From NCBI GenBank assembly GCA_049974095.1, contig JBMFJD010000009.1:1-27386 (forward strand): 27,386 nt of DNA. Direction: 5' to 3'. The DNA comes from Nanopusillaceae archaeon. GTDB lineage: Archaea; Nanobdellota; Nanobdellia; Nanobdellales; Nanobdellaceae. The notes below the pieces were generated by a model, which was not told the DNA's origin, did no database searches, and was given only the letters and a program-made list of their open reading frames with translations. Shown in pieces: positions 6,710-25,231 of the stretch (its first letter is position 1; every line of letters starts with the position of its first letter). Made by a program: the position numbers and the translations under genes.

Positions 6710-6728
6710 ACAAATATTTATATGTGTT
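6710..6728 (-). promoter_or_regulatory. Extended TATA promoter motif (minus strand reads aacacatataaatatttgt)
   Basis: Member of the recurrent AACACWTATAARTATTTGT family. The TATA core is about 25 nt upstream of the ATG at 6693. Confidence 0.55.
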
Positions 6729-6944: not shown

Positions 6945-6962
6945 GGGGTAAGAGTATACCCC
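6945..6962. other. GC-clamped hairpin ggggta-agagta-tacccc at the outer edge of the left arm
   Basis: A 6-bp stem with a 6-nt loop is read directly from the sequence. A degenerate mirror copy lies at about 7570-7589. G4/C4 runs are conspicuous in this AT-rich DNA. Confidence 0.4.
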
Positions 6963-7277
6963 GTAATTATTTCTTACTCAAAAGTAGTAAAATTGTATAT
7001 TATATCATATCTTTTTAAAATATATGCAATATACAATGTAGTAAAAATTTATAAATTTTTTATAATATGTGTTAATATGTATAATATTTGTTTTTATGTG
7101 TTCACATATTTATATTTGTTATATGTATTATTATGTGTATATGTTATTATTATTACTAAGTAGTAGATATGTATATATATTTATAAATATATCTATAAAA
7201 AAGAAGATAATATAGAAATAATATATATTTAAAAAATATAAATAGCTAATAATATGGCAAAAAAGAGATGTTATCAC

Positions 7278-7378
7278 TTATTAATAATAAATAATAACAT
7301 AATAATTTAAATAATTTATTATTATTATTAATTATTATTTTTTAATAATAAATAATTATTAATAATAATTAATATAAA
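7278..7378. other. Near-pure A/T core; candidate DNA unwinding element
   Basis: About 100 bp contain a single C (7298). The tract is built of aataat/attatt units and includes a 15-nt direct repeat, ttaataataaataat, at 7281 and 7342. Confidence 0.5.
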
Positions 7379-7530
7379 CAACTACTGTACAGTGGTAGTA
7401 GTAAAAATTACACATATTATTATGTGTACACATATAAACACATATAACACATAAAAACACATATAAAGAAAAATTTATAAATATTAAGTACAATGCATAA
7501 TATATAATCGTTTTTATATTAGCAAATAGT

Positions 7531-7544
7531 TAACACATGTGTTA
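7531..7544. promoter_or_regulatory. Perfect 14-bp palindrome taacacatgtgtta inside the right arm
   Basis: The sequence is self-complementary as read. It shares the CACATGTG core with the 1112-1132 inverted repeat. Confidence 0.4.
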
Positions 7545-7786
7545 TCACTTTTGAGTAAGAAATAATTACGGGGTTGAACTTATACCTCCTTTTTTGCAAT
7601 TTTTTACAAATTAAAAAAATCAGGTGAAAATGATGGCCTTTAATTTTATAAATACATTCCAAAATATATAAATAACACTTTCCATAAGGGATACATGTTA
7701 CATTCATAAAAATTTATAAAGTCATGTAGAAAGTTCTATAATGGGATATAGAAATTCCTTTAAAGTTATCTAAAATAATATATTTT

Positions 7787-8987: not shown

Positions 8988-11132
8988 ATGGCAGAAAAAG
9001 AGAAAAAAGAAAAAATTGTTTTTAGTGGAGGAGTTATACCACTACATACCAGAGAGGTATATATACCAGATAAATTGAAAGAAATGTATATAAACTTTTT
9101 GAAACAGAAGGCACAACAAACATTAACAAATATAGGGATAAATGATGAGTGGGATCTAAAAATAAATGAAGATTTTAAAAAGGTTAAACGTCAAGCTTTG
9201 GAAAATTTCTTTAAATTAGAAGATCCTGGATATACTATTGTAAATTTTGATGATTTATACAAATTCTTATCTTCTATAGGGTTAAGAGATGCTTTTAAGA
9301 AATCTGGGGGTATAATAAAGTATTTATTACCACATTATGTAAATGAAGAATTGAAAATTACTTGGGATCTTCCAATATATATAAAAAATATTCCAGAAAA
9401 ATTTACAAAAACTACAAAAGAATTTTTAGAGTCAGATAGTGACGATGTTGTTGTTTTAAAGGGATTTGTGGATTCTATAACATATATAAATGATATTCCA
9501 GTATTCTTTGTTGTTAGACATTCATTATGTGGAGGTACATTTTTGGTTGAAAATGATATTCCTCATAATAAAGGTTTGAAGAACATATTAAAAAATAAGA
9601 TAAATGCTTGCCCATTATGTGGATCATCTGAAGGTCAATTCGTTGTTGAGAAAATTATTGCAACAGATGCATATAAGTTAACAATAAGTGATATACCAAA
9701 AGATGAAGGAAAAAATGTAAAGTTTGTTGAGGCATATATATTTGGTAAGGCAATGGATTTGTATAGTATACCATCTGCAAGAATTGGTTTGGTTGGTATT
9801 ACTAGAAGGATATTTAATGGTAAAGAGATAGAATCTTATTTAGAAGTTGTTGGTATCGAACCTTTAGATAAAACAGTAGAAGAGATAGAATTAAAGGATG
9901 AAGATATAAAAGAGATTGTAAATACTGTAAGAGGATCTGGATACAATATAATTGATATGATTGCAGAATCTATGTTGCCAAATATAAAAGGAGATCAATA
10001 TAAATATATTAAAAGAGCTGTATTATTACAAGCAATGTCTGTTAGTCAACAAAAAGAAATTGATTTATTAGCAGATAGATTACATATAAATATATTATTA
10101 TTAGGAGATCCAGGTACAGGTAAATCCACATTATTGAGAACAGTTTCAAAACTAATACCTAAATCTAGATATGCTGTAGCTACTTCTTTAACAAAAGCAG
10201 GTTTGTTGGGTACAGTTACTAAATCTGAGGAGGGTAAATGGGTATTAGAAGTTGGTATATTGCCATCAGCATCTGGAGGATTATTATGTGTTGATGAAGT
10301 AAATAAGTTATCTCCAGATGATATAAAATCGTTAAATGAGGCAATGGAACATGGAACTGCAACAATTGATAAAGCAAGTGTACATGTTACATTAAGAGCA
10401 AATGCAGCAGTATTGGCAGCATCGAATCCAAAATATGGAAGATGGGATCCAAATAGAGAGTTAATAAACCAGATAGATATAGAACCAACAATGTTATCCA
10501 GGTTTGATTTAATATTTGTATTAAGAGATATACCAAACAAAGAACAGGATATTTTAGAGGCAAAAGAAATATTGGGAAAAAATAAAGTTGATAATTCATA
10601 CTTTAGTAAAGACTTTATATTGAAATATATAGCATATGCAAGGTCAATAAATCCAGAAATAAGTGATGAAGCAGAAACATATATTGCAAAATTATATGCA
10701 GATCTAAGAGATAAAACAAAAGATACATTTCCAATAACTAAAAGACAATTGGGAACAATAGAAAGATTAGCAATTGCAATTGCTAAAGCCAGGTTGAGTA
10801 ATGTTGTTACAAAAGAAGATGTAGATTATGCATGGGAAATAATATCAAATAGTATATATAGCATGGTTGGTAATGCTACACAGTTAGATTTTGGAGTTGT
10901 TGAAACTGGAGTAAAAAGTAGTGCAAAGAACAGATCAAAATTAGTAAAGGAGGTAATTGAGCAACTAAATAAAACATATGGTAAGGGAGTTACTTTCAAT
11001 GACATATATAATTATCTAAAAGATAAATATGGTTTAGATATATCACAAACAGAACTTAAGGATCTCATTTCGCTATTAAAATATAGTGGGGATATATATG
11101 AACCGGAACCAGGTTTGTACAATGTATTATAA
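8988..11132 (+). CDS. mcm: MCM replicative helicase, full length (N-terminal Zn/OB domain, AAA+ core, C-terminal winged helix)
   Basis: Walker A is ILLLGDPGTGKST and Walker B is LLCVDEVNKL. Sensor 1 is AVLAASNP and the Arg finger is MLSRFDLIFVL. The lid reads ITKRQLGTIERLAIAIAKARLSNVVTKEDVDYA. Zinc motif is HSLCGG...CPLCGS. The linker motif LPNIKGDQYKYIKRAVLLQ precedes the AAA+ core. Confidence 0.9.
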   Translation: MAEKEKKEKIVFSGGVIPLHTREVYIPDKLKEMYINFLKQKAQQTLTNIGINDEWDLKINEDFKKVKRQALENFFKLEDPGYTIVNFDDLYKFLSSIGLRDAFKKSGGIIKYLLPHYVNEELKITWDLPIYIKNIPEKFTKTTKEFLESDSDDVVVLKGFVDSITYINDIPVFFVVRHSLCGGTFLVENDIPHNKGLKNILKNKINACPLCGSSEGQFVVEKIIATDAYKLTISDIPKDEGKNVKFVEAYIFGKAMDLYSIPSARIGLVGITRRIFNGKEIESYLEVVGIEPLDKTVEEIELKDEDIKEIVNTVRGSGYNIIDMIAESMLPNIKGDQYKYIKRAVLLQAMSVSQQKEIDLLADRLHINILLLGDPGTGKSTLLRTVSKLIPKSRYAVATSLTKAGLLGTVTKSEEGKWVLEVGILPSASGGLLCVDEVNKLSPDDIKSLNEAMEHGTATIDKASVHVTLRANAAVLAASNPKYGRWDPNRELINQIDIEPTMLSRFDLIFVLRDIPNKEQDILEAKEILGKNKVDNSYFSKDFILKYIAYARSINPEISDEAETYIAKLYADLRDKTKDTFPITKRQLGTIERLAIAIAKARLSNVVTKEDVDYAWEIISNSIYSMVGNATQLDFGVVETGVKSSAKNRSKLVKEVIEQLNKTYGKGVTFNDIYNYLKDKYGLDISQTELKDLISLLKYSGDIYEPEPGLYNVL

Positions 11133-11188: not shown

Positions 11189-12106
11189 ATGAGAGTAAAG
11201 TATATCTTACCTCTTATATTAGGTGTATTTGCATTTAGTATATTCTCCCAACAACCACAATGGCAATTTGTTACTTTTGGTAGCCCTAACGGTGGACAAG
11301 TTACATTACCTATATATATGACACAATTAGTATATCAATTGAATGTATCTCAAAACACATCAGCACAATTTATTCAAGTAACTATTCCACAATCTATTTT
11401 ACAACAACAATTACAATATTGTAAAACTTATGATCCATTCATATCAAATAATATATCCTTATTACAATGTGCTTTTGCTTATCCAAGTATAGTGATAGTT
11501 TATACTATTTCTGGATCTACGCCAAATAATGCATATGAGATTCCATATAACATGATTATTATGAGTTATGATAATGTAACAGGTTTACCACAAACCTTCC
11601 AAATCTATTTGAATAATCACATAGGTGCTTTAAATCCAGGTTTATACTTTGTATATGTTTACTACGGGGGTCCTTACTACTTTCCATATGCATCAATGAC
11701 AAGTAATAAAATACCATCATGTCCTAGTTTAGGTACAATACAATATGCTACTCCATCAGACTTTGATGGTGGATGGTGTGGTGCTGGTGGTGGAATATTT
11801 TATTCATATCCATGGGGACAAGGATATAATACAGGTTCTAATACAGAGAGATATCTATTTGTAAAATTTAATCCTCAATATCCAGTATTAGTTGAATTAA
11901 CGTCTTCCAGTGGATCAGTTACAGTAGAAAATCCATCTACAGGTCAAACAGCAACGTTGTCTATTAATGGAGGAGTATTATATGATCTAAGATTATTGGA
12001 ACAACAAAATGGATTAAATCTATATCAATGGAATGAAATAGTAGACATTAACTTAGTATTTGGATGGATAAATGGTTTCTTCTTAATATATACACCACAA
12101 ACATAA
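11189..12106 (+). CDS. Secreted glycoprotein, paralog 1 of 3
   Basis: Signal peptide is MRVKYILPLILGVFAFSIFSQ. Family blocks are IQVTIPQSILQQQLQYCKTYDPFI, SYDNVTGLPQTF, CPS...FDGGWC, RYLFVKFNPQYPVLV, VTVENPSTGQT..LSINGGVLYDLR and QWNEIV. Multiple N-x-S/T sequons are present. Confidence 0.8.
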   Translation: MRVKYILPLILGVFAFSIFSQQPQWQFVTFGSPNGGQVTLPIYMTQLVYQLNVSQNTSAQFIQVTIPQSILQQQLQYCKTYDPFISNNISLLQCAFAYPSIVIVYTISGSTPNNAYEIPYNMIIMSYDNVTGLPQTFQIYLNNHIGALNPGLYFVYVYYGGPYYFPYASMTSNKIPSCPSLGTIQYATPSDFDGGWCGAGGGIFYSYPWGQGYNTGSNTERYLFVKFNPQYPVLVELTSSSGSVTVENPSTGQTATLSINGGVLYDLRLLEQQNGLNLYQWNEIVDINLVFGWINGFFLIYTPQT

Positions 12107-12159
12107 TTCAATTTTTTAGTACTATATCCTTTTAAATATGTATATTAATATTTACTAAT

Positions 12160-13182
12160 ATGAGATTCAAGTATATCTTACCAATTATATTTAGTATATT
12201 AGGATTTAGTATATTTTCTCAACCACCAATATGGCAAACTGTTAGTTTTAATACACCTAGTGGTCAATCTGTGACAATACCATTATATATGACACAATTA
12301 GTATATCAGGTAAATATAACACCAGGTACATCTTTGCAATACGTACAGATAACTATTCCACAATCTATATTACAACAAGAATTACAATATTGTAAAACAT
12401 ATGATTCATTTATAGCAAATAATATATCTGTATTACAATGTGCATATGCATACCCAAGTATTGCTGTAGTTTATAATAATCCATACTCTAATCCACCATC
12501 TATGGCAAATGGCAATTCATATGAGATCCCATACTATATGGATGTTTTAAGTTATGATAATGTAACAGGTTTACCACAAACCTTCCAAATCTTTATTAAT
12601 AATTATGTTGGAACATTATCTGCAGGTACTTACTATATATATGTTTACTACGGAGGTCCATACTATATGTCACTTGCATCAGTGACAACTAACAGCATAC
12701 CATCATGTCCAAGTGTTAGTTCTTTACCTTATGCTACAACAAGTAACTTCGATGGTGGATGGTGTGGAAGTAATGGTGGTGCAAGTTTCCCAGGATATTC
12801 AAAACCATGGGGACAAGCAATTACTACTACAGGTGGTGGAAGCTTTACCATAACAAGATACCTTTATGTAACCTTTAATCCACAATATCCAGTATTAGTT
12901 GGATATCAAAGAGCATATTGTGCTAGTGGTTGTTCAGATAGTGGATCTGTAACAGTAGAAAATCCATCTACAAGTCAGACACAAACATTATCTATTAATG
13001 GAGGAGTATTATATGATCTAAGAATATTAGAACAACAAAATGGATTAGATCCAGATCAATGGAACGAAATAGTAAATGTAAGTTTAAGCGCATCTCATCC
13101 TGCAGTTTATTGTTGGTATAGTTGTGAATATGCTGGTTCAGCTCTACCAGGTTTTTACTTACTCTATACACCACAAACATAG
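12160..13182 (+). CDS. Secreted glycoprotein, paralog 2 of 3
   Basis: It has the same signal peptide and conserved blocks as paralog 1. Longer insertions contain extra Cys pairs (YCASGCSD, YCWYSCEY). Confidence 0.8.
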   Translation: MRFKYILPIIFSILGFSIFSQPPIWQTVSFNTPSGQSVTIPLYMTQLVYQVNITPGTSLQYVQITIPQSILQQELQYCKTYDSFIANNISVLQCAYAYPSIAVVYNNPYSNPPSMANGNSYEIPYYMDVLSYDNVTGLPQTFQIFINNYVGTLSAGTYYIYVYYGGPYYMSLASVTTNSIPSCPSVSSLPYATTSNFDGGWCGSNGGASFPGYSKPWGQAITTTGGGSFTITRYLYVTFNPQYPVLVGYQRAYCASGCSDSGSVTVENPSTSQTQTLSINGGVLYDLRILEQQNGLDPDQWNEIVNVSLSASHPAVYCWYSCEYAGSALPGFYLLYTPQT

Positions 13183-13235
13183 TCCAATTTTTTTATACTA
13201 TATCCTTTTAAATATGTATATTAATATTTACTAAT

Positions 13236-14276
13236 ATGAGATTCAAATTAAGGTACATTTTACCAATTATATTTGCAATAATTGGATTTAGTATATTCTC
13301 CCAACAACCACAATGGCCAATGGGTGCATTATCAACAATAGGAGGAACTCAAACACAGATACCATTATATTCAACAGAGTTAGTATATCAGGTAAATGTA
13401 TCTCAAAATGCTACTTTACAATTTATTCAAGTAACTATTCCACAATCTATATTACAACAACAATTACAATATTGTAAAACTTATGATCCATTTATAACAA
13501 ATAATATATCTGTAACTCAATGTGACTTTGCATATCCAGCAATGGCTATAGTATATAATTCTACTTCTGGTTCACAGGTAGGATATGAAATATCATATTT
13601 TATAGTACCTGCTTCATATGATAATGTTACAGGATTGCCAAATACTTTTGATATCTTATTAAACAATCGTATTGGTGTATTAGGTGTAAGTAGTACTCCA
13701 TATTTTGTATATATATTGTATCCATCTCCATACTATTTATCTTTTGAATCACTATTTAATTCACAAAGTATGCCACAATGTCCAAGTGTTAGTTCTTTAC
13801 CTTATGCTACAACAAGTAACTTCGATGGTGGATGGTGTTCAGATACTGGAGGATTCGGAGCTAATTATCAACCAAACTCTTATCTATCTTATCAATATCC
13901 ATATGCACAATCACTTTATTATTCATCTTGTGCAAATGGTTGTATAGTTCTTGGTGGTGTTAATATAACAAGATATCTTTATGTAACCTTTAATCCACAA
14001 TATCCAGTATTAGTTGGATTTATGTCAGTAGGAACTGGACCTAATTTTGGTGGTTATGTAACAGTAGAAAATCCATCCACAGGTCAGACACAAACATTAT
14101 CTATTAATGGAGGAGATATATTATATGATCTAAGAATGTTAGAGTTGGGTCAAGGATTAAATCCATATCAATGGAATGAAATAGTAGATGTAAAACATGG
14201 TGATTCATCAGGTGTTTGTACTTTTTGTGGCGCTTTTGCTTCAACAGGTATATATCTACAATATGTACCGCAATAG
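13236..14276 (+). CDS. Secreted glycoprotein, paralog 3 of 3
   Basis: It has the same signal peptide and conserved blocks. Its variable inserts are distinct (SSCANGCIVLGG, GVCTFCGAF). Confidence 0.8.
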   Translation: MRFKLRYILPIIFAIIGFSIFSQQPQWPMGALSTIGGTQTQIPLYSTELVYQVNVSQNATLQFIQVTIPQSILQQQLQYCKTYDPFITNNISVTQCDFAYPAMAIVYNSTSGSQVGYEISYFIVPASYDNVTGLPNTFDILLNNRIGVLGVSSTPYFVYILYPSPYYLSFESLFNSQSMPQCPSVSSLPYATTSNFDGGWCSDTGGFGANYQPNSYLSYQYPYAQSLYYSSCANGCIVLGGVNITRYLYVTFNPQYPVLVGFMSVGTGPNFGGYVTVENPSTGQTQTLSINGGDILYDLRMLELGQGLNPYQWNEIVDVKHGDSSGVCTFCGAFASTGIYLQYVPQ

Positions 14277-14299
14277 TTTTTCTAAAATAATTTTTAATT

Positions 14300-14321
14300 A
14301 AACACATATAAGTATTTGTTT
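14300..14321 (+). promoter_or_regulatory. Extended TATA promoter motif aaacacatataagtatttgttt
   Basis: The TATA core is about 25 nt upstream of the ATG at 14335. An identical 22-mer recurs at 26735-26756. Confidence 0.55.
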
Positions 14322-14334
14322 GTAAATATGTATT

Positions 14335-15192
14335 ATGGATTTCCAAGATTTAGTGAATGGTCTATTCCCATCACTAAAGGGGAATGTTTACAAATATATT
14401 AGACAAGCTGTTGCATATCAATTAATCTCTATAGGAAAGACACCTTTCTTTAGAGATTCTATACATATATTATTATTAGGAGAACCTGGTACTGGGAAAT
14501 CTCATATGTTAAAATATGTAAGTATGATACCCGGAAATAAATATGTAAACGGGGAAAATCTAACAATTGCAGGTTTGATAGGATATACTAGTATGTATAA
14601 TGTACAGCAGGGTGTTGTATCTTTAGTAAATGGTATATTATGTATAGATGAGATAACAAAAGCAAATAAAACTGTAAGAGAAAGGATGAATGAATTATTA
14701 GAAGAGCTATCTGTTACTATTGCTAAAGCTGGTAAGATGGTAAAATATGATGTAAATCTTGCTGTACTTGCTGCTGCAAATCCAAAACATGGGGTATTTA
14801 AAGGTAAAGATATTATTGAACAGATAGATTTACCTCCAACAGTTGTTGACAGGTTTGATTTAATATTTGTATTAAGAACTCAAAATATAGATAAAATAGC
14901 AACGGAGAATTATGTATTTAATAATGATGAATTAGTAAAATATTTGAATGAAGTAAGGAGTATAAATCCAGATATTGGTATATTTGATTTAGGTAAATTA
15001 AATATAGCATTACCTACATCTGGTGTATATTTATCAGATAGAAGATTAATGACTATATTAAGATTAGCAAAAGCAATAGCCAGATCATATAAAGATAATG
15101 TAGTAAAAGATGAATATATTGAAGAGGCCGAAAAATTCTTTATTAAAGTAGTAAATAGATTATTCGGATATGATATACAAGATATTGACTAA
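14335..15192 (+). CDS. Stand-alone MCM-type AAA+ core (no N-terminal domain, no winged helix), catalytic motifs intact
   Basis: It starts exactly at the MCM linker motif (LFPSLKGNVYKYIRQAVAYQL, compared with LPNIKGDQYKYIKRAVLLQ in the full MCM). Walker A is ILLLGEPGTGKSH and Walker B is LCIDEITKA. Sensor 1 is AVLAAANP and the Arg finger is VVDRFDLIFVL. The lid reads LSDRRLMTILRLAKAIARSYKDNVVKDEYIEEA. A 28-nt identity to mcm links 14850-14877 with 10499-10526. Confidence 0.85.
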   Translation: MDFQDLVNGLFPSLKGNVYKYIRQAVAYQLISIGKTPFFRDSIHILLLGEPGTGKSHMLKYVSMIPGNKYVNGENLTIAGLIGYTSMYNVQQGVVSLVNGILCIDEITKANKTVRERMNELLEELSVTIAKAGKMVKYDVNLAVLAAANPKHGVFKGKDIIEQIDLPPTVVDRFDLIFVLRTQNIDKIATENYVFNNDELVKYLNEVRSINPDIGIFDLGKLNIALPTSGVYLSDRRLMTILRLAKAIARSYKDNVVKDEYIEEAEKFFIKVVNRLFGYDIQDID

Positions 15193-16972
15193 TAGGGATC
15201 CATATAATTTTGTATATAATAATAACCCATATGATGTAGTTGTAGGCTTATACTATAATAACTCATTAATTATAGATTTAGATCAATATAATAATATAAT
15301 ATCATCTGTTACTAATGATTATTTTAATTTACCAAAAACATTAGTACCATTTTCAACTATAACAAATGCTTTACTTAATTTACAGAATTCTTTGGATATA
15401 TTAGATACAGGTGCTATTATACAATTGCTATCTGGTAATGTAAAGATATCCTCAAATAAACCATTGATATTCTTCATAGTAAGGGATAGAAATAATCCTA
15501 TATATAATATATTAAAGTCAAAATATAATCTATATGAGGTACCTGTTAAGGATGCTAGTGTAAGGGATCATTCTATATATCTAAGAAGGGTTGTATGTTC
15601 AGCAGGTCATTATATAATAACATGGAAGAAATACCCTCCAATTGTATGTCCTATATGTTCTATGAAGGGACAGATATCTAAGATTGTTGGATTTACAGAT
15701 TTCATATATTCAGATAAGATGATTATATTATATGATGAATATGGTAAGATGAATATAATTGTAGATACAGATCTATATGATTTTATGAAAAAATTGGATA
15801 CAGATTATAAGTTAATAATAATGGATATTTCTCCATATAAATCTGAATTAAAAGAGACAAGAATTAATAGATTATTCTATGCTGTTGGATTATTAATTGA
15901 AGATAAGAGGACATATAATTATGATGAAATAATATCTTTCTTTAACCTAAATATTGATGATAAGATAAGATATATGCTAAATGCAAGTAAGATTGAGGAT
16001 CTGGTTATATCATTACCACTAATGTTTCAACAGATGGATAAATTTACAGTATTATATGTTGATATAAATCAGAAATATGTTCCATTAATATTTGAATCAT
16101 ATAGTAGATACAATAGTGCATCAGTAGAAAATATACTAGATATTGAAAATCCTGTATTGATGAATGTACAAGATTTGCCTGCAGGTATTAGATATAAGAT
16201 AAATGCTATGTTATTGAATCATGAGATAAATCTGGTAATGTTATTTAAATATTCATATGGAATGAGGGCTGTAGATTTTACATCATTTGACTCATTCTAT
16301 AATTCATTATCAAGATCTTTCTTAACATTCTTTGATAAGATAGACTTTATTGTACCATATATTATTGATTTTAAGTTTGAAGTAAGTGAAAGGAATATTT
16401 CAAACATATTTAATTTCATTAAACATCTATCAAGATCAATAAAGGTATATGATAAAAACTTTGAGAATATATTTTATTCAGAGGTTGAGAGGATAGGTAG
16501 AGTATATAGTCAATATAGTGATATACTTGCATATAAGAAAACAACAATAAATAAATTATCGAAATTGTTTGCTATATTAAATAAGAGGAATAGAATAGAG
16601 TTAGATGATATCAGATATGCAATAGGATATTATAGTGTAATGCATTTATTACCATTTGTTGTAACAGATGTAAAGGCAAAGGATGTATTGGATTTATATA
16701 AAGATTATATTAAGTTTATATATGACAGATACGTTAATGTACAGCAACAGAAGAGAGTAATATCTACTAAAAGAGATATTGAGGAACTAATATATGAAAT
16801 ATTAAGAACAGGTCCGAAAACAATAATAGAGATAAGAAAGGCTATTGAGAATATGAGGGATAAGATGATAGTTAAGAGTGGTATAAATCTATATATAATG
16901 ATTGAGAGGGTTTTGAATGAGCTAACATCTCAAGGTAGGATTAAATATAATAATGGTTTGTATTCCTTATGA
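15170..16972 (+). CDS. Full-length MCM-like protein with degenerate (probably inactive) ATPase motifs
   Basis: The N-terminal Zn/OB-like region reads VVCSAGH...CPICS, followed by FIYSDKMIILYDE. Where Walker A is expected, the sequence is EINLVMLFKYSYGMRAV, with no GxxGxGK(S/T). FDKIDFIVPY stands in place of SRFDLIFVL. A lid-like INKLSKLFAILNKRNRIELDDIRYAIGYY is present, and a wH-like C-terminus ends in GRIKYNNGLYSL (mcm ends GDIYEPEPGLYNVL). It overlaps the upstream ORF by 23 nt in the +1 frame. Confidence 0.65.
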   Translation: MIYKILTNRDPYNFVYNNNPYDVVVGLYYNNSLIIDLDQYNNIISSVTNDYFNLPKTLVPFSTITNALLNLQNSLDILDTGAIIQLLSGNVKISSNKPLIFFIVRDRNNPIYNILKSKYNLYEVPVKDASVRDHSIYLRRVVCSAGHYIITWKKYPPIVCPICSMKGQISKIVGFTDFIYSDKMIILYDEYGKMNIIVDTDLYDFMKKLDTDYKLIIMDISPYKSELKETRINRLFYAVGLLIEDKRTYNYDEIISFFNLNIDDKIRYMLNASKIEDLVISLPLMFQQMDKFTVLYVDINQKYVPLIFESYSRYNSASVENILDIENPVLMNVQDLPAGIRYKINAMLLNHEINLVMLFKYSYGMRAVDFTSFDSFYNSLSRSFLTFFDKIDFIVPYIIDFKFEVSERNISNIFNFIKHLSRSIKVYDKNFENIFYSEVERIGRVYSQYSDILAYKKTTINKLSKLFAILNKRNRIELDDIRYAIGYYSVMHLLPFVVTDVKAKDVLDLYKDYIKFIYDRYVNVQQQKRVISTKRDIEELIYEILRTGPKTIIEIRKAIENMRDKMIVKSGINLYIMIERVLNELTSQGRIKYNNGLYSL

Positions 16973-17228
16973 TATATATTTAGATGATGGAGTAGAATTA
17001 AACAAATTATTTAGTATGCTAAATGATGAGAATATTAAGAAAATTAGGGAATTTTTAATTAAATATGTAAATAGCAATAATTACTTAGAGTTAATAAATG
17101 ATACAGATATCCAAAATAATCAGGATATAATATATATAATGAAGTATCTTGGTATTATTACTGAAGTATCTGGTAAATACTATATAATTATACCTGTAGC
17201 GAAAACACTTATAAATATTTGTCAGTAA
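16953..17228 (+). CDS. Small hypothetical protein (possible winged-helix)
   Basis: 91-aa ORF overlapping the previous gene by 20 nt. No strong motifs. Its 3' end contains the promoter motif of the next gene. Confidence 0.5.
   Translation: MVCIPYDIYLDDGVELNKLFSMLNDENIKKIREFLIKYVNSNNYLELINDTDIQNNQDIIYIMKYLGIITEVSGKYYIIIPVAKTLINICQ
17204..17223 (+). promoter_or_regulatory. Extended TATA promoter motif aacacttataaatatttgtc
   Basis: The same 20-mer occurs at 18043-18062. The motif starts 33 nt upstream of the ATG at 17237. Confidence 0.55.
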
Positions 17229-17236
17229 TATATAGT

Positions 17237-17836
17237 ATGGAATACAAATTAGAAGTTTTATCTCCAATATTGTCAGGTTTATCAAACGATTATTTTAGCT
17301 TTAGGGTTTTTACTAAAATAGATTTTTCAGATTTTAGGGTAGTATCTAAGATTAAGTTAACAGCAGAAGATCTTACTGGATATGAAAAAGAGATGGAAGA
17401 AAAAGGTAGAGACGTTGTACTAAAGGAAATTTATGAGAAGAAAAAAGATGCCATAGAGAAAGAATTATTAAGATTAGGGTATGTAAAGCTTGGATATTTA
17501 TTTCCAAGAAAGCATTTTAATATAGATTCTATAAAGACAAAAGATGATTATGTTAATTGGATAGATTATATTGCATTATTTTCAAGAGGTATAGTATTTA
17601 CTTTAGAAAAAGAACATAAAATTAAGGCAAAGATAGAGGATATTAAACCAATTAATGTATCTTTAGGGGTACACTTATTATATTATGATAATGCAAAGAT
17701 TGTAGTTGCTTATGAAGCAATACTACCAGGTTCTTTATTCTCTATAACATTTGATTCTAAAATAGAACCAGATATTGTTGTTCGTATTGGAAGGTTAAGA
17801 AAATTCGGATTTGGTAGGGTTATTATAAAAGAATGA
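17237..17836 (+). CDS. Orphan RAMP/Cas6-like protein (candidate)
   Basis: I prefer the ATG at 17237 (MEYKLEV...) over the TTG at 17219 because of the promoter spacing. The N-terminal strand YKLEVLSPILSG, the internal YEAILPGSLFSITF, and the C-terminal glycine-rich loop VVRIGRLRKFGFGRVIIKE match the RAMP signature (hG-x5-GhG followed by a terminal beta strand). Confidence 0.45.
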   Translation: MEYKLEVLSPILSGLSNDYFSFRVFTKIDFSDFRVVSKIKLTAEDLTGYEKEMEEKGRDVVLKEIYEKKKDAIEKELLRLGYVKLGYLFPRKHFNIDSIKTKDDYVNWIDYIALFSRGIVFTLEKEHKIKAKIEDIKPINVSLGVHLLYYDNAKIVVAYEAILPGSLFSITFDSKIEPDIVVRIGRLRKFGFGRVIIKE

Positions 17837-18741: not shown

Positions 18742-20589
18742 ATGAAAAATGAAGTGTTTGATATAAAAGGTTTGATTAGAAAAATAGGTGTTAAAATAAT
18801 AACAGTATTATTAATAACCTTTTTCTTATATTCAGTAAATTCACAGCCAGCAATAACATTTCCAAATTGTATTCAATCAGCTCCTAATGCTTATTTATGT
18901 AATATAAATCCAAGTAGTCCTTTCGTATATTTTAATATTTATAATACGGAGATTCCATTTAATTTAACAATAGAATACAATGGTATTCCAGCAGCAATAT
19001 ATCAAGCGGGTACGTATATTGGAAGCGGGTCATCATTTACTACTAATACTACAATACCTGTTGGTACTACTCCATTCGAAATGTCTGTTACATCATCAGG
19101 ATCTTCAGTAATAACATTCTTATTTGCAGGATTTTCTAATGCTACTAATAGTACTATAACATATAATTATACATATGCGTTGTCGATAAACTTACAGTCA
19201 ACAACTACTACCACAACATCAACACAAAATACTACTACCACAACTACTACAACCACACCCCCAACTACAACCACACCACCACCTACAAATTATACAGGAG
19301 TGCCTGTTACTCCAATATACTCAACAATATACTTAACATTATATCCAAATCAAACATATCAATATCCAATAGGGCTAGTTGATACATCTCCTTATAATGT
19401 TACTGTTTTATCTGTAGTTATACAAGGATTACCTCCACAAAATGCAAATATACAAGGGGCATTTGGTACACTTCAACCTGGTCAAGTAGCATCTGGTGTA
19501 TTATATATTAATACTGCAGGTATGCAACCTGGTCAATATACATTCAATATAGCATACTCTGTTGAGGCAAATAATCAAGTATATAATGTACAAACAAGTG
19601 TTACTTTAACAGTTATTTCCCAATTATCTCAGCAAACATCTCAGACATCTCAAACAAATCAAACAACACTCCAGATAACGAGTCAAGGGTTACCATTATA
19701 TGTTAACTATTCTATAGTTGGTAATTATCTGTTTATTGGTGGAGCATATACTATATATAACGGAGAACAAATATATTTGTCTGGAGTCAATATTATGGTT
19801 ATAGGACCAGGTGGACAAGCATTAACATATTTATACCCAATACAGGTATATCCAGGACAAACATATTGTATATATGCATATGATCAAGGATTTGTTCCAT
19901 TCTTTACATGTCAACAGATACCACCAAGACCATTATGTTATATTTTGTCTCCACAAGGACAACAATATAATAATCAAACATTTTATCAGGATGGGACACA
20001 GGTTACTATAAAATCCATATATGATTGTCAAACACTTCAACCAGTATATGGTGTTGTAATATATTATGATAATCAACCAGTTAATCAACAGACATTTACA
20101 ATACAGGAGGGATCAAATAATATTGCAATATCTGCTCCAGGATATACATTAACTAATATAACATTATATGGATATATACCTGTACAGGTTAATAATTTAC
20201 CAAGTACTCCAGGTCAATATAATATTACTACTACAGGTACATTTGCTAGCCAAGCACAATTGCAATTATATACTTATGTTAATGGTACTAAGACAATATT
20301 AGCAACAGGTACAGGATTCTTATTCTATAACTTTACTAATGATACATATTATTTAGTATTAGATGCTCCATTACAAAATGAGGCAACATATACTATAACA
20401 ATATTACCCCCAATTATTCCAACACAGGTATCTTCATTTAATATAAACGAATTTATATTATCTAATATATGGTATCTTATAATAGGATTCTTGATATTTA
20501 CATTAATATCAATAATAATATATAAGAAAGGACATAAAGATGTATCTGAATTGGCTAAACAAATTGTAGAAGAATCTAAGAAACTATGA
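18742..20589 (+). CDS. Large Thr/Pro-linker glycoprotein with N-terminal signal and C-terminal membrane anchor
   Basis: 615 aa. The signal region is VKIITVLLITFFLYSVNSQ. The low-complexity linker TTTTTTSTQNTTTTTTTTTPPTTTTPPPT lies at about nt 19198-19290, and an SQQTSQTSQTNQTT repeat follows. There are many N-x-S/T sequons. The C-terminal TM is IWYLIIGFLIFTLISIIIY, followed by KKGHKD. Confidence 0.75.
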   Translation: MKNEVFDIKGLIRKIGVKIITVLLITFFLYSVNSQPAITFPNCIQSAPNAYLCNINPSSPFVYFNIYNTEIPFNLTIEYNGIPAAIYQAGTYIGSGSSFTTNTTIPVGTTPFEMSVTSSGSSVITFLFAGFSNATNSTITYNYTYALSINLQSTTTTTTSTQNTTTTTTTTTPPTTTTPPPTNYTGVPVTPIYSTIYLTLYPNQTYQYPIGLVDTSPYNVTVLSVVIQGLPPQNANIQGAFGTLQPGQVASGVLYINTAGMQPGQYTFNIAYSVEANNQVYNVQTSVTLTVISQLSQQTSQTSQTNQTTLQITSQGLPLYVNYSIVGNYLFIGGAYTIYNGEQIYLSGVNIMVIGPGGQALTYLYPIQVYPGQTYCIYAYDQGFVPFFTCQQIPPRPLCYILSPQGQQYNNQTFYQDGTQVTIKSIYDCQTLQPVYGVVIYYDNQPVNQQTFTIQEGSNNIAISAPGYTLTNITLYGYIPVQVNNLPSTPGQYNITTTGTFASQAQLQLYTYVNGTKTILATGTGFLFYNFTNDTYYLVLDAPLQNEATYTITILPPIIPTQVSSFNINEFILSNIWYLIIGFLIFTLISIIIYKKGHKDVSELAKQIVEESKKL

Positions 20590-21731
20590 GGAAGATATCT
20601 AATCCTTTTAAATCATTAATAGATGCATATAAATATACTATATCATATTTCTATAATTATTTAAAGTATAAATTAAGTAGAAGGGTATCTGATAAAAAAG
20701 AGATAAAGATAGATGTATCTCAATTACCAAGAGATGAACAATTAAGGATTCTTACAGAACAATTATTAAAAGAAAGACAAGATAAGATACTATATGAACA
20801 AAAATTAAAGGAATTAGAATCACAATTAACAGATATACAGGCAAAACAGTTTGCTAAGATATTAGAAGAATTATATAAAGAAGAAAAAGAAACTGGAAAA
20901 TTACCATTATCATTATATGATTTACTAAGGAAAGCTAGAGCAGCAGGTGCATTACCATTTAGAAAACCTCCGGTAGTATATGATATAACTATGCAGAGGT
21001 TAGGTAGATTATATGATATTGTTATTCATCCAGATGGTGGTATAGCATTTGTAATAAAGGCTGGTAAACAATTTATTATGACCCCCCCATTTGGATCTTT
21101 ATGGGATGCTATATTTCATCCAGAGAATTTAGCATCACAATTACCAGATTCTATAACATTATTAGTATATAAAGATCCTAATGGTAATGTGGTAAAGGTT
21201 CCATCAGTATATCTTAATAGATTATATGGAGGGGAACCCGTAGAGAAGATTGTTGCAGAGCTACAAACACAAATAAATAAGGTATTAAATGATTTAGAAT
21301 CTACTAAGGTAAATGCTGAGATGGTATCTTTACAAAATCAAATAGAGAAGGTATATAGATCTGTATCAGATTCTGTAAGTACAACCGCATTAAATTTATT
21401 TGAAAAGAACATGAAAGATTTGAAGAATGTACTAGTACCTACTACATTAGCAGCAGTAGAATCATCTACAACTATGCAATTAGATGTAGCTCAAGAAAGA
21501 TCAAAATCAGAACATTTACAAGATATATTAACACAATATTCAGAAAGATTAAAGACATTAGAATCTTCATTAGCACCAGAGAGGATAATATCTATACAAA
21601 ATGAGATTATTGATAGATTAAGACAATTATCTGCAGATTTAGCTCAAATAAGATCTGCATTACAAGCACCTCCATCAGTCCCTCCAGAACAAGCCCCACA
21701 AAATCAGCCTGAACAAGGTACTCAAGGATGA
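20586..21731 (+). CDS. Coiled-coil protein with a central globular domain and a Pro/Gln-rich tail
   Basis: It overlaps the upstream gene by ATGA. Heptad-like segments include EQLRILTEQLLKERQDKILYEQKLKELESQLTDIQ and the C-terminal LQDILTQYSERLKTLES...LSADLAQIRSALQ. It ends APPSVPPEQAPQNQPEQGTQG. Confidence 0.65.
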   Translation: MRKISNPFKSLIDAYKYTISYFYNYLKYKLSRRVSDKKEIKIDVSQLPRDEQLRILTEQLLKERQDKILYEQKLKELESQLTDIQAKQFAKILEELYKEEKETGKLPLSLYDLLRKARAAGALPFRKPPVVYDITMQRLGRLYDIVIHPDGGIAFVIKAGKQFIMTPPFGSLWDAIFHPENLASQLPDSITLLVYKDPNGNVVKVPSVYLNRLYGGEPVEKIVAELQTQINKVLNDLESTKVNAEMVSLQNQIEKVYRSVSDSVSTTALNLFEKNMKDLKNVLVPTTLAAVESSTTMQLDVAQERSKSEHLQDILTQYSERLKTLESSLAPERIISIQNEIIDRLRQLSADLAQIRSALQAPPSVPPEQAPQNQPEQGTQG

Positions 21732-22726
21732 CGTTATATACTAAAGCGATTAGAGATTTAATATATGAGAATCCTGATAAATATAGATTTTTAATATCAA
21801 CAGGTCTATATCATAGATATCTAGATTCAATAGTGCTATTAGATAAGATGAAACAATTATATGAAAATGAAGAATTGGAAGAATTAATAAAAAGAGGAAA
21901 TTGGATTGATATAATTAGAGCTACTGCTATAGATTATGTTGTATCATATATATTATTTAGGGATCCCAATAAAAAAGAGATGGCAGAGAAAGTAGCAGAG
22001 ATAATAAATTTACAGGTTACTGTTATTCAAAACTATATACAGGCGATATTAGAAACATTGTTAGTTAGAGCTAGAGGAGAATCGCCAAGGATTTTAGCTG
22101 TATCTCAGGCTTTATCATATTTTGGTGATCTAATATCTTTCTTTGAAGAAGTATTCTTTAGACCAATAGATGATGTATTATCATATGTATTATATAAGAG
22201 AAATTATATAAGGACATTAATAGAACAGAAAGCATCTGTTGCAAAGAAAGTAAAAGAGGTAACAAGATCTATGGAAGAACTAGCTGCTTCTCAAGAGCAA
22301 CCTGAAGTACCATCTGAAGAATTATCAAAAGCAGCTACTGATGTAAAACTTGAATATATATCATCGATATATGAAAGACCATTAATTAAACCAACTCCGA
22401 TATTCACTGATAAGGAGGTAGAATTGATTACTACATTGATACAAAGGGGAGCATTTTATCCTAAGTTATCTGTATCTGAAGATGACCTTGCAGCAACATT
22501 ATCTGTAAGCAAACAAGATCTGATGAAGATAATAAACTCTATATGGGGTAAATGTAAAGAATATAATATGGACCTATTTATTGTGGTAAGCACAGAGAAG
22601 GATCCTTCAGGCAATGAAATAAACTATATAAGTATAGATCCTAACCTATTTAGGAAGTCTACAAATAGATTAGTAAAGGCTCATCCAGATTTAGTGGAAT
22701 TATTCTTACAATTCTATGGTGCTTAG
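21728..22726 (+). CDS. Hypothetical protein
   Basis: 332-aa ORF with an ATGA overlap to the upstream gene. It is mainly helical, with a possible wH-like segment (LSVSEDDLAATLSVSKQDLMKIINSI). Confidence 0.6.
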   Translation: MTLYTKAIRDLIYENPDKYRFLISTGLYHRYLDSIVLLDKMKQLYENEELEELIKRGNWIDIIRATAIDYVVSYILFRDPNKKEMAEKVAEIINLQVTVIQNYIQAILETLLVRARGESPRILAVSQALSYFGDLISFFEEVFFRPIDDVLSYVLYKRNYIRTLIEQKASVAKKVKEVTRSMEELAASQEQPEVPSEELSKAATDVKLEYISSIYERPLIKPTPIFTDKEVELITTLIQRGAFYPKLSVSEDDLAATLSVSKQDLMKIINSIWGKCKEYNMDLFIVVSTEKDPSGNEINYISIDPNLFRKSTNRLVKAHPDLVELFLQFYGA

Positions 22727-23042
22727 ATTCTTTGTATCTGTGCCAGATCCATTTGTAGAATCATGGGTAGGAATATATGGAAATAACGAATTTAATAGAT
22801 TATTATACTTATATGAGATAAATCCTATTACAAAGAAAATAGAGTTCTTGGGTGTTGATAGAGATACACCAATAAATAGGAGAAAGTACTTATCTTATGG
22901 TTTTAGAGATCTAACAGATAAACTAAATGTTATATTAGATAAGAAGCCAACAGAGATAGATCTATTTACATATAAGATTACGGAAATGCTATATAAGTAT
23001 CCAGATCTGGCTAAAAAATTATCTAAATTTATAAGAAGATAA
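22716..23042 (+). CDS. Hypothetical small basic protein
   Basis: 108-aa ORF with an 11-nt overlap to the upstream gene, co-oriented within the operon. Confidence 0.55.
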   Translation: MVLRFFVSVPDPFVESWVGIYGNNEFNRLLYLYEINPITKKIEFLGVDRDTPINRRKYLSYGFRDLTDKLNVILDKKPTEIDLFTYKITEMLYKYPDLAKKLSKFIRR

Positions 23043-23043
23043 A

Positions 23044-23493
23044 ATGTGGATAACTAAGTTTGCTAAGTGGTGTCCTTTCTGTATGTATGCTAATAGTAGG
23101 TTAATTCAATTTCCGGGCTTTCAATATCAATTTAGGGTTAAATTAGATTTTTCCAATGAGCATTATGCTTTATCCAATATAACTACTAAGGAACCATTAT
23201 TTTATAATCCATTGACTAAAACATATGCTGTTGGTACAAAGATAGATCCTGTACTTGCAGATATGCAAATTGCTTTTTTAATGAGATATGATAGAGAAAT
23301 GACATTATATAAAACTAATAGATTACCTGTACCTGAATTAACTGGAATATATGATAGGATAATATCATCTAATGTTGAAAATGCATATAGGGTAATATAT
23401 AATAGAGCATATGAGGTTCAATATAAGTACCCTATAGGTACGGAATCTACTATAAGGGCTTTAGAAAGAATAGGTACTTTATTGGAGAGATGA
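23044..23493 (+). CDS. Hypothetical protein
   Basis: 149-aa ORF starting 1 nt after the previous stop. It has a single CPFC motif near the N-terminus. Confidence 0.55.
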   Translation: MWITKFAKWCPFCMYANSRLIQFPGFQYQFRVKLDFSNEHYALSNITTKEPLFYNPLTKTYAVGTKIDPVLADMQIAFLMRYDREMTLYKTNRLPVPELTGIYDRIISSNVENAYRVIYNRAYEVQYKYPIGTESTIRALERIGTLLER

Positions 23494-24107
23494 GCCCATT
23501 ACCTGTAAATGTAACTTCTTTACAAGGTACTATAACTTCTTTTTCTAATGTATTTCATAATTTTAGTATATCTGCTGTAGTAGCAATTGTATTCCTTTTA
23601 GTTGCATTTCTATTATTTTCTCTTATTATTAGAAATATACTATCATCGTTTATACCTAGGTTTTCTCTTCTAACTATTATATTGGTTGTATCTTACTTAG
23701 TAGCATTCTCATATTATGTACCAGTATATATACCACAAACATTTGTTACTGTAGTAAATAATACAACAGTAGTTAATACAAATGTGACATCTCATCTATT
23801 ATCAACATATAATTTTATTATAATAACTAAATTTTATGATAACCTATTATATTATATGGCACAGTATAAAGTATCGCCTTCAGATATTCTAGTACCTTAT
23901 GTTATACTAATACTATTTTACATATATTTTATCTATGCACTATACAATAGAATAGGAAAAATGGCAATACCTATTGCAGCACTCTTGCTCTTTGTAATTA
24001 CATTGGGAATGACGGGGCTAATGTTTGCTAGCATAACATATAGTACATTATTATATATGGACCTGTCTCTGGCATTATTATCTGCTATTGCATTTGTATT
24101 AGCATGA
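23490..24107 (+). CDS. Polytopic membrane protein
   Basis: It has ATGA overlaps at both ends. There are about 5 hydrophobic segments, with a luminal N-x-T-rich loop (VVNNTTVVNTNVTS). Confidence 0.65.
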   Translation: MSPLPVNVTSLQGTITSFSNVFHNFSISAVVAIVFLLVAFLLFSLIIRNILSSFIPRFSLLTIILVVSYLVAFSYYVPVYIPQTFVTVVNNTTVVNTNVTSHLLSTYNFIIITKFYDNLLYYMAQYKVSPSDILVPYVILILFYIYFIYALYNRIGKMAIPIAALLLFVITLGMTGLMFASITYSTLLYMDLSLALLSAIAFVLA

Positions 24108-25231
24108 GTGCTAGAGATTTAATAGATGATTATAAAAAAAGAGATGGATTGTTAGGATTGTTAAGAGAATTTAGGGATAAATTGATTAATGATTTTCAAA
24201 ATGAATTTACTAGAATATGGAAAGAGGCATTTCCAAGTTCTAATATAGAAGTTATACCATTAGAGGCTGTTGGAAGATTTCTTGGTGTATTTGTATCTGC
24301 ATATACTAGAGCTAGAAAAGATAGAAAAGCAAAATTAGATCCATATTTAAAAGAGTTTACAGATTTATATAATAGGTATAGGAATATAATGTCAAATATA
24401 ACATTTGGTCAATTATTAAGATTAATAGCTACAGGAGAGAGATTGAGAGAAACGATTAATGGTACTACATATATGGAATTCTTAGTAAGATTACATGATT
24501 GGATAGATGAGATAGTATTTATATTTAAGATGAGCGAACAAAATATAAGACCATATTTCCCAGATATCTATAATTATTACGATAAAATGGTTAAGGTATT
24601 AGTAGATGTATCTACCGATTATGTTGGAGGTGTATGGGAAGGTGCATTCGAATTTATATTTGGAGGGTTTATTCATCTTGATAACTTCATGTATGAGGTT
24701 ACAAATGATTTAGATATAGGTACCTGGGAACCTTTTGTATATTATATTGTTAAATTAATAAAAATATTAGCTATAGCTGCAGGATATGATGTTGTATTTC
24801 CACCAGACTTCTTTAGTCCAGAAGAATCAAGTTCTGGATATGGAGCTGCAGGGGATTGGGAATATCTATTAAGAGTATATCCAAAAGAAAGTATTGGTAC
24901 AGATGCTGCGAAGATAACTGAAGATACTTTATTATCTATGGCAGCTCAGGTTGGTGTTGATGTAAAAGATGATGTTGCTGAATTAAAGAAGGCTGATAAA
25001 GATCTTAGAAGGATGGTTGATGAATTTCCTGCATATTTCTATGTTGTAGCATTAACTGGAGGGATGTATAGAGAAAGGGTAGTATATAAAGGGTATATAC
25101 CATGGGATTTCTTAGCATATCCTATACAGGAAATAGCTAATAAGTTACAGAAGATTAAATATGCTGTAAGACCAAGGAGAAGAGGACATAGATCTCCAAG
25201 GAGACCTAGATATAGATATTGGACTTACTGA
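24104..25231 (+). CDS. Hypothetical protein with an Arg-rich C-terminal tail
   Basis: 375 aa. It ends AVRPRRRGHRSPRRPRYRYWTY, a possible nucleic-acid-binding tail. It is the last gene of the coupled operon. Confidence 0.6.
   Translation: MSARDLIDDYKKRDGLLGLLREFRDKLINDFQNEFTRIWKEAFPSSNIEVIPLEAVGRFLGVFVSAYTRARKDRKAKLDPYLKEFTDLYNRYRNIMSNITFGQLLRLIATGERLRETINGTTYMEFLVRLHDWIDEIVFIFKMSEQNIRPYFPDIYNYYDKMVKVLVDVSTDYVGGVWEGAFEFIFGGFIHLDNFMYEVTNDLDIGTWEPFVYYIVKLIKILAIAAGYDVVFPPDFFSPEESSSGYGAAGDWEYLLRVYPKESIGTDAAKITEDTLLSMAAQVGVDVKDDVAELKKADKDLRRMVDEFPAYFYVVALTGGMYRERVVYKGYIPWDFLAYPIQEIANKLQKIKYAVRPRRRGHRSPRRPRYRYWTY

Follow-up and report, generated by a model that had tools for sequence, protein, structure and literature searches.

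Why would a small archaeal mobile element that already encodes a complete MCM, the replicative helicase of archaea and eukaryotes, keep two further MCM-derived genes, one reduced to a motor and the other apparently deprived of its ATPase motifs? The question is raised by contig JBMFJD010000009.1 of assembly GCA_049974095.1, which comes from a Nanopusillaceae archaeon, a member of a family of tiny hot-spring-type archaea. The window, by which we mean the whole stretch of 27,386 nucleotides that was analysed, has a G+C content of about 27% and lies in what we infer to be an uncharacterised virus- or plasmid-like element of Nanopusillaceae (DPANN) metagenome bins. The two genes of interest overlap and are called here mini-MCM and pseudo-MCM. 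Their coordinates, the 23-nt overlap and the +1 frame of the second open reading frame (ORF) had been given exactly by a first-pass annotation made from the sequence without database searches, and are listed here with the full-length MCM of the element.

8988..11132, plus strand: full-length MCM of the element, 714 aa, with Pfam matches to MCM (E 2.4e-61), to the lid and to the archaeal MCM winged helix.
14335..15192, plus strand: mini-MCM, 285 aa, an MCM AAA+ alpha/beta domain and lid, without N-terminal domain and without winged helix.
14479..14502, plus strand: Walker A motif of mini-MCM, GEPGTGKS, residues 49-56, from family alignments.
15170..16972, plus strand: pseudo-MCM, 600 aa, predicted full MCM-like architecture, ATPase motifs absent.
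15170..15192, plus strand: overlap of mini-MCM and pseudo-MCM, 23 nt, pseudo-MCM being in the +1 frame.

Taken together, the gene pair suggests a natural split of the MCM helicase into an engine and a scaffold. The engine is the more readily recognised of the two. Residues 4-183 of mini-MCM matched the Pfam MCM P-loop domain (PF00493) over profile positions 16-207, with an E-value of 1.5e-38 and a score of 132.6 bits against a gathering cutoff of 23.3; a weak Pfam lid match was also obtained, and the protein shared 36% identity with residues 325-632 of the 714-aa MCM. Besides Walker A, the Walker B (D105/E106), sensor 1 (N149), Arg finger (R173, within DRFD) and sensor 2 (R236) residues are intact, and these catalytic motifs show no variation among the three family members that have diverged most and are retained in five mini-MCMs aligned with cellular MCMs. 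In sequence alignments, the pre-sensor-1 segment (VTIAKAGKMVKY) aligned without gaps with that of full MCMs, and the helix-2 insert was about 6-9 residues shorter than theirs. The protein ends after the lid, and neither an N-terminal Zn/OB domain nor a winged helix was found in it, in agreement with the first-pass annotation, which had read the 285-aa ORF as an AAA+ core carrying Walker A, Walker B, sensor 1, Arg finger and lid and lacking both terminal domains. Position 14335 is the first start codon after the upstream stop, so that the ORF cannot be extended upstream, and family members measure 279-285 aa. By its profile matches and alignments, the first gene of the pair encodes an MCM pared down to the AAA+ motor, all of whose catalytic motifs are intact.

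Recognising the second protein was a matter of fold. Profile searches, which had been proposed along with the first-pass annotation for all three proteins, found Pfam MCM in the 285-aa and 714-aa proteins but no MCM-family match (MCM, MCM_N, MCM_OB, MCM_lid) in pseudo-MCM even at E<=5. PHROG and PDB sequence (phmmer) searches also returned no match for it, and BLASTP against the 714-aa MCM of the element was not significant. An AlphaFold2 model of the full-length protein was built on a five-sequence alignment; its mean predicted local distance difference test (pLDDT) score was 64.6, with values above 85 over most of residues 430-600. Comparison of this model with the PDB by Foldseek gave 223 matches at E<=1e-3, and all 50 matches listed were MCM subunits, including human MCM5 (8s0a_5, the best at E 2.5e-8), a Saccharolobus solfataricus/Pyrococcus furiosus MCM (6mii_E, E 5e-8, TM-score 0.36) and the MCM of M. 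acidophilum (8q67). The alignments extended over about 600-700 columns including gaps, or about 500-700 when both models described here are considered.

Residues 1-420 were modelled separately from seven sequences, which guards against a result driven by the lid and the winged helix. This second model had a mean pLDDT of 55.7, rising to 74-89 over residues 100-245, and ranks 1-23 of its Foldseek matches were all MCM (best 7pmn_5, E 1e-6). It also matched isolated N-terminal domains of P. furiosus MCM (5iy0_A, 4pof_A and 4ywm_A), the alignment with 5iy0_A comprising 250 columns for a chain of 253 residues. An Orc1/Cdc6 identity for pseudo-MCM was considered and rejected: no Orc1/Cdc6 protein occurred among the 50 listed matches of either model, and a Zn/OB N-terminal domain is predicted to be present.

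A check independent of AlphaFold was made with hhalign, an eight-sequence alignment of the pseudo-MCM family being compared with 32 MCMs. A single collinear alignment of 527 columns was returned (query 25-606, MCM 11-685; E 0.001, probability 21.6%), in which the CPIC of the family is paired with the CPLC of the MCM zinc motif and the C-terminal GRIKY-NNGLYSL with the wing of the MCM winged helix. Its score of 38.7 compares with 16.4+-2.2 (maximum 21.3) for column-shuffled, 20.5+-2.9 (maximum 26.3) for block-shuffled and 17.0 for reversed controls; with only three MCMs as target, the probability was 5.5%. The MCM fold and domain order (Zn/OB, AAA+ core, lid, winged helix) were found in pseudo-MCM, at modest model confidence. 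Foldseek and hhalign agree here with the first-pass annotation, which had seen a Zn/OB-like N-terminus, a lid-like helix and a winged-helix-like C-terminus in an ORF on which sequence searches are silent, and an MCM architecture was recovered where that annotation had allowed for there being no MCM N-terminal or AAA+ fold at all. On this model and profile evidence, pseudo-MCM is a very divergent MCM paralogue that has kept the whole domain order of MCM and lost its ATPase motifs. The predicted domains are as follows.

15467..15904, plus strand: Zn-ribbon and OB-like beta region, residues ~100-245 (pLDDT 74-89; matches to P. furiosus MCM N-terminal domains).
15596-15658, plus strand: zinc ligands C143, H147, C160 and C163, invariant in the family.
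16043..16369, plus strand: degenerate AAA+ core, residues ~292-400, placed by secondary structure, hhalign and family alignment; low pLDDT, boundaries approximate.
16397..16669, plus strand: lid-like helical bundle, residues ~410-500 (pLDDT 76-95, above 85 from residue 430).
16757..16969, plus strand: C-terminal winged-helix-like domain, residues ~530-600 (pLDDT 80-95; helix-helix-helix-strand-strand; aligned by hhalign with the MCM winged helix).

The zinc motif, C143-x3-H147...C160-x2-C163, is invariant in seven sequences down to 30% identity, and metal binding is predicted. Residues 456-489 were placed by hhalign on the MCM lid helix, with an invariant K457 at the sensor-2 position. Both the N- and the C-terminal parts of the protein are basic (isoelectric points 8.5 and 9.6), which is consistent with DNA binding.

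The degenerate core has lost the residues on which catalysis by an MCM depends. No GxxGxGK[ST] P-loop occurs anywhere in the sequences of the family. By secondary structure (strand 292-298, helix 305-312), the Walker-A-equivalent of pseudo-MCM is FTVLYVD-INQKY-VPLIFESY, residues 292-311; in the alternative register of hhalign, strand 1 and the P-loop are deleted, and the P-loop is absent under both. The destroyed Walker A of the first-pass annotation is thereby borne out, although the segment that had been assigned to that position, LFKYSYGMR, was read in the wrong register: these are residues 358-366, which continue from strand 354-360 according to the model secondary structure and hhalign, and which lie past the Walker-B-equivalent, on the sensor-1 strand. 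FDKIDFIV, which had been set at the Arg-finger position, does align with the SRFD Arg-finger strand. The Walker-B-equivalent reads MN or VN in place of DE, the sensor-1 Asn was not found in the family alignment, and the Arg-finger position is variable (K, R or Y). Because the core of pseudo-MCM has only about 110 residues, compared with about 190 in MCM, it leaves no room for the helix-2 insert or the pre-sensor-1 hairpin, and these two DNA-translocating hairpins are apparently absent from what is a low-confidence stretch of the model.

Both families are equally small. Members of the pseudo-MCM family amounted to five clusters in a word-indexed search and to four proteins in a profile search of 1.84 billion representatives, and a metagenome scan for more members of the gene-pair families gained only short contigs. 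No mini-MCM or pseudo-MCM family member was found in IMG/VR, among INPHARED viruses or among PLSDB plasmids, and none in GTDB representative genomes, where the only matches were to unrelated Nitrosocosmicus MCM-like proteins. The gene pair with its overlapping stop and start codons nonetheless recurs near a full MCM in five further assemblies, at 30-93% identity. In every sufficiently long contig (L001, L002, L003, L005, L006, L008 and L012), mini-MCM is directly followed by a pseudo-MCM of 593-623 aa. The overlap measures 23 nt in the window, 14 nt in L001, L003 and L005, and 7 nt in L002, where the frame offset also differs. Homologues of ORF91 and ORF205, the two genes downstream of the pair, come next, and a full MCM lies nearby where the contig reaches, usually divergently transcribed.

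Ratios of nonsynonymous to synonymous substitution rates, estimated by the method of Nei and Gojobori, were 0.09-0.12 for mini-MCM, 0.056-0.16 for pseudo-MCM and 0.16-0.25 for full MCM, and pseudo-MCM is on these estimates a pseudo-enzyme under strong purifying selection. Across the deepest split, conservation is highest in mini-MCM, at 55-59% identity compared with 28-35% in full MCM and 30-38% in pseudo-MCM. The metagenome-assembled genome from which the window comes also holds a second copy of all three MCM-derived genes (P0002, P0011 and P0037), 75-86% identical, on a contig of 59.9 kb, which points either to two related elements or to a free copy beside an integrated one.

What the two proteins do may be approached from their domain contents, which are complementary: mini-MCM lacks exactly the N-terminal domain and the winged helix that pseudo-MCM has kept. 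From the overlap of the genes, their strict co-occurrence, these complementary domains and the purifying selection, we infer that mini-MCM and pseudo-MCM form one complex for the replication of the element, with pseudo-MCM as scaffold and mini-MCM as ATPase, a reading to which we would give a probability of roughly 0.5. Synthesised side by side, the two proteins would work as a unit: pseudo-MCM would bring the Zn/OB collar and the winged helix, with which DNA or the origin would be bound and the ring organised, and mini-MCM would hydrolyse ATP. The complex would most likely take the form of an MCM-type ring of mixed composition or of a motor joined to a scaffold, might include the full MCM of the element, and would serve replication of the element. 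The partition of DNA-binding and ATPase functions between two polypeptides, as first put forward, holds for the complementary domain content but is incomplete, a degenerate AAA core and lid having been kept by pseudo-MCM.

Several points weigh against a joint complex. Having an AAA-like core and a lid of its own, as modelled, pseudo-MCM is not simply the missing half of mini-MCM, and it probably cannot complete the ATP site of mini-MCM in trans by the canonical route, since the residue at its Arg-finger position varies. A complete MCM is already present in the element, so the need for a second helicase is not obvious; isolated archaeal MCM AAA+ domains can unwind DNA alone, and mini-MCM might therefore act alone. 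The models of pseudo-MCM are modest (mean pLDDT 64.6 and 55.7, TM-scores 0.2-0.36) and were built on five to seven sequences, its AAA-core segment is poorly predicted, and the hhalign probability with MCM is just 21.6%. Finally, the virus- or plasmid-like nature of the element is deduced from gene content and the lack of host markers, no relatives having been found in virus, plasmid or reference-genome collections.

A more specific proposal, which we put forward tentatively and regard as possible but doubtful, is an obligate hetero-oligomeric MCM ring of mini-MCM, pseudo-MCM and perhaps the full MCM, containing dead and N-domain-less subunits, or alternatively a pseudo-MCM that would be a helicase-derived loader. 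If true, such a hetero-ring would be an independently evolved counterpart, in the prokaryotic world, of the functional asymmetry of eukaryotic MCM2-7, and a natural experiment on the number of active sites and of N-terminal collars that an MCM ring requires.

It is rather unlikely that pseudo-MCM instead serves a real MCM ring as regulator, chaperone or loader, be it the ring of the 714-aa protein or that of the host, and that mini-MCM is a separate helicase or ATPase sharing its operon. The model for such a role is MCM-BP, a eukaryotic MCM paralogue that has diverged strongly, lacks functional Walker motifs and binds to subunits of MCM. Pseudo-MCM, which shows a full MCM architecture without catalytic residues as MCM-BP and MCMDC2 do, would bind MCM subunits or origin DNA via MCM-type interfaces. 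A full MCM is always nearby in L001, L002, L003 and L005, no Orc1/Cdc6 was recognised among the window ORFs scanned against Pfam, and an AT-rich candidate origin with inverted repeats is located at 6694-7786. However, it is with mini-MCM, and not with full MCM, that pseudo-MCM shares a tight overlap and strict co-occurrence; the full MCM is encoded on the opposite strand in most relatives and is three inserted genes apart in the window.

The first-pass annotation had also raised a decoy or hijacker of the host MCM. Under this explanation, which we hold to be improbable, the dead protein, the motor-only one or both would join the Nanopusillaceae MCM of the host in mixed assemblies and poison or hijack this MCM, whereby host replication would be shut down or redirected. 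ATPase-dead subunits are classic dominant negatives, and mini-MCM and the element MCM stem from the Nanopusillaceae MCM lineage, so that their interfaces could be compatible with those of the host. Yet mini-MCM and host MCMs are only about 33% identical in the AAA+ region, which is poor for a heterologous interface, and pseudo-MCM has diverged past sequence recognition from any MCM. Moreover, a decoy needs no intact ATPase partner conserved at 55-59% identity, and the catalytic motifs of mini-MCM are invariant.

We consider it very improbable that pseudo-MCM is not derived from MCM at all, that is, that it is an unrelated DNA-binding protein whose fold matches are artefacts of low-confidence models recalling generic OB, alpha/beta and winged-helix folds. 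The lack of Pfam, PHROG, PDB-sequence and BLAST similarity, the hhalign probabilities of 5.5-21.6%, the mean pLDDT of 55-65 and the TM-scores of 0.2-0.36 would suit such an explanation. Against it, the top matches of two separately computed models were all MCM (the 50 listed and ranks 1-23, respectively), isolated MCM N-terminal domains were matched by the model of residues 1-420, and Orc1/Cdc6 or other AAA+ plus winged-helix proteins were absent from the top matches. In addition, the collinear hhalign alignment beat all shuffled and reversed controls by at least 4 standard deviations, and both the zinc motif and the C-terminal wing are aligned with those of MCM.

Overlapping ORFs in different frames look superficially like a frameshift and Nanoarchaeota are known for split genes, but a single gene broken by an assembly indel (as the first-pass annotation had itself considered), a decaying pseudogene or a Nanoarchaeum-style split of a conventional mcm is excluded for practical purposes by a two-ORF layout shared among six independent assemblies in which the overlap is 23, 14 or 7 nt and the frame offset takes two values, by a gene order (AAA+ first, N-domain protein second) that is the reverse of mcm, by a pseudo-MCM whose MCM-like architecture is already complete on its own, and by purifying selection on both ORFs.

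The joint complex of mini-MCM and pseudo-MCM remains the reading that we prefer, and the lineage of its components can be followed in part. The nearest relatives of the element MCM outside the element lineage are cellular MCMs of Nanopusillaceae (36-38% identity). In a neighbour-joining tree of 279 AAA+ columns with 200 bootstraps, which is crude and has long branches, mini-MCMs were monophyletic (100%) and fell inside a clade (89.5%) that also takes in the MCMs of the elements and those of Nanopusillaceae. This topology supports an old, not a recent, duplication within the Nanopusillaceae/element MCM lineage as the source of mini-MCM. Derivation of both ORFs from MCM, as originally supposed, is upheld for mini-MCM by Pfam and the tree and for pseudo-MCM by fold and profile comparisons, but the grouping of mini-MCMs with element MCMs is weaker (65%).

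The full MCM of the element has peculiarities of its own. It had been called canonical, which fits its MCM, lid and winged-helix Pfam matches but not its N-terminal 320 aa (8988-9947, plus strand), for which no Pfam MCM_N or MCM_OB match was found even at E<=5. Its orthologues in L001, L003 and L005 do match MCM_OB, with a conserved zinc motif (H178/C181/C208/C211), and the N-domain of the full MCM in this lineage is, by these comparisons, unusually divergent. A 243-aa protein encoded at 353-1084 (minus strand) has a winged-helix-like N-terminus and a compact AAA+ core with Walker A GSSGIGKS, Walker B IDELD and the motif ILDRFDL. It matched the Pfam MCM P-loop at 1.9e-7 over residues 92-135 only, gave marginal PDB matches to MCMs and shared 23% identity with the core of mini-MCM (pairwise E 1e-5); the element might have in it a fourth MCM-related ATPase, or one of initiator type. 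The 593-aa ORF at 4340-6121 (minus strand), a candidate MCM paralogue by its length, was rejected as such, since it encodes a protease of the thermopsin family (PF05317, 1.5e-51) that has a membrane anchor at its C-terminus and a tail rich in lysine.

Around the gene pair, three further features complete the putative transcription unit.

14277..14334, plus strand: AT-rich intergenic spacer, 58 nt, upstream of mini-MCM; the preceding ORF ends at 14276.
16953..17228, plus strand: ORF91, gene 3 of the putative operon, overlapping pseudo-MCM by 20 nt, with a winged-helix-like C-terminus.
17219..17836, plus strand: ORF205, gene 4 of the putative operon, overlapping ORF91 by 10 nt, with a C-terminal G-rich loop.

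Mini-MCM, pseudo-MCM, ORF91 and ORF205 look like a conserved four-gene operon, the spacer at 14277..14334 is likely to be its promoter, and the overlapping stop and start codons are consistent with translational coupling of its genes. ORF91 is kept in L001, L002, L003 and L005, and its C-terminal LGIxxExxGKxYIIxP resembles the wing of a winged helix. ORF205, with homologues at L001:10182-10805, L002:6378-7001, L003:6797-7417 and L005:6259-6882, ends in a conserved G-rich loop, IGRxRxxGFG. Pfam and PDB searches with the ORF205 family returned no match; weak RAMP signals came from PADLOC (Csm3 in three of five members, E 0.006, and Cas6e in two of five, E 0.001) and from NCBIfam (a weak CasE match in two of five, E 0.004), and the protein could be a nucleic-acid binder of RRM/RAMP fold with ties to the MCM module.

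Between the full MCM and mini-MCM, three tandem paralogous proteins of 305, 340 and 346 aa (11189-14276, plus strand) share motifs and signal-peptide-like N-termini. They are peculiar to the window: the full MCM and mini-MCM of L001, L002, L003 and L005 point away from each other and have no more than a single small ORF of 62-68 aa separating them. Divergently oriented gene blocks are separated in the window by an intergenic region of 1.1 kb at 6694-7786, about 80% A+T, which we regard as a candidate replication origin. It contains inverted arms of 33 nt (6958-6990/7542-7574, 94% complementary) and 111 nt (7023-7133/7396-7506, 77%). An AT palindrome lies at its centre (7314-7373), and ACACATATAA occurs as four repeats at 7428-7467. 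Further downstream, 18742-25878 is occupied by a long conserved run of uncharacterised genes, also found at L001:11239-18343 and L003:7811-14767. This block comprises a Thr/Gln-rich, membrane-anchored protein of 615 aa, followed by proteins of 381, 332, 108, 149, 205 and 375 aa, and includes a 217-aa membrane protein on the opposite strand. The 381-, 332- and 375-aa proteins had no PHROG or virus-database match, and the block is probably a morphogenesis or transfer module of an undescribed Nanopusillaceae element.

The path from a homohexameric MCM to rings whose subunits are specialised and in part inactive is of both evolutionary and mechanistic interest, and it is notable in this respect that a small DPANN mobile element keeps three MCM derivatives (complete, motor-only and ATPase-dead) under purifying selection. 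If mini-MCM and pseudo-MCM do form a complex, they would offer a compact, heat-stable system in which to ask which MCM functions depend on the N-terminal collar and which of them depend on ATP sites. Pseudo-MCM also adds to the MCM superfamily a family without a Pfam model, and indicates that archaeal mobile elements can conceal replication proteins detectable only at the fold level.

Compared with the archaeal MCM of Saccharolobus solfataricus or Pyrococcus furiosus (PDB 6mii, 9nuk) and that of M. acidophilum (8q67), mini-MCM shares the AAA+ module with all its catalytic motifs and pseudo-MCM shares, as modelled, the domain order and fold (Zn/OB, AAA-like core, lid, winged helix), so that functions carried there by one polypeptide are spread here over two. 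Pseudo-MCM differs from these proteins in that it has no ATPase motifs, apparently lacks both translocation hairpins and cannot be recognised by sequence. Nor are the two genes consecutive halves of one protein, as in a Nanoarchaeum-type split gene, the order being reversed and pseudo-MCM itself complete. Multiple MCM paralogues derived from integrated elements occur in Thermococcus kodakarensis and in Methanococcales; to our knowledge these are full-length proteins that have kept their ATPase motifs, and we know of no motor-only and dead pair among them.

Closer to mini-MCM are mobile-element proteins with an MCM AAA+ region and no canonical N-terminal domain. The BcMCM of a Bacillus cereus prophage is described as having its N-terminus replaced by a primase-like segment within the same polypeptide (PMC2715239), and a protein of Thermococcus prieurii virus 1 (TPV1) annotated as the 'C-terminal part of the MCM2-like helicase' matched mini-MCM at 29.5% identity. 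Neither is reported with a co-transcribed ATPase-dead full-length MCM paralogue. MCM-BP, for its part, is not known to have a motor-only protein as its own partner, nor is it known to be homologous to the pseudo-MCM family.

The closest conceptual precedent for the gene pair is, by analogy, the mei-MCM complex of Drosophila. MEI-217 corresponds to an MCM N-domain recognisable only by structure prediction and MEI-218 to an AAA-like domain with degenerate Walker motifs; the two "resemble one full MCM protein", associate with each other and cooperate with REC (MCM8), a bona fide MCM, and MEI-218 and MCMDC2 are ATPase-dead MCM paralogues of eukaryotes (PMC6553819). As in the element, a split MCM-like protein stands beside a bona fide MCM, and its similarity to MCM emerges only through structure-based methods. 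In the fly, however, the AAA-like part is inactive, whereas here the AAA-only protein is catalytically intact and its partner is a complete but dead MCM; one system belongs to eukaryotic meiotic recombination and the other to an archaeal mobile element, with independent origins. The likeness of mei-MCM, MCMDC2 and MCM-BP to the gene pair is a functional analogy drawn from descriptions of these proteins. In the light of this precedent, the initial claim that such an arrangement is undescribed for MCM was too strong, but its specific combination stands apart: no description of an intact motor-only MCM together with a complete dead MCM in an archaeal mobile element was found in the literature searched, the nanoarchaeal virus NAV1 (PMC7000964) being outside its coverage. 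What appears to be new, compared with all these systems, is the coupling of an intact motor-only MCM to a complete dead one in an archaeal mobile element, together with the pseudo-MCM family itself.

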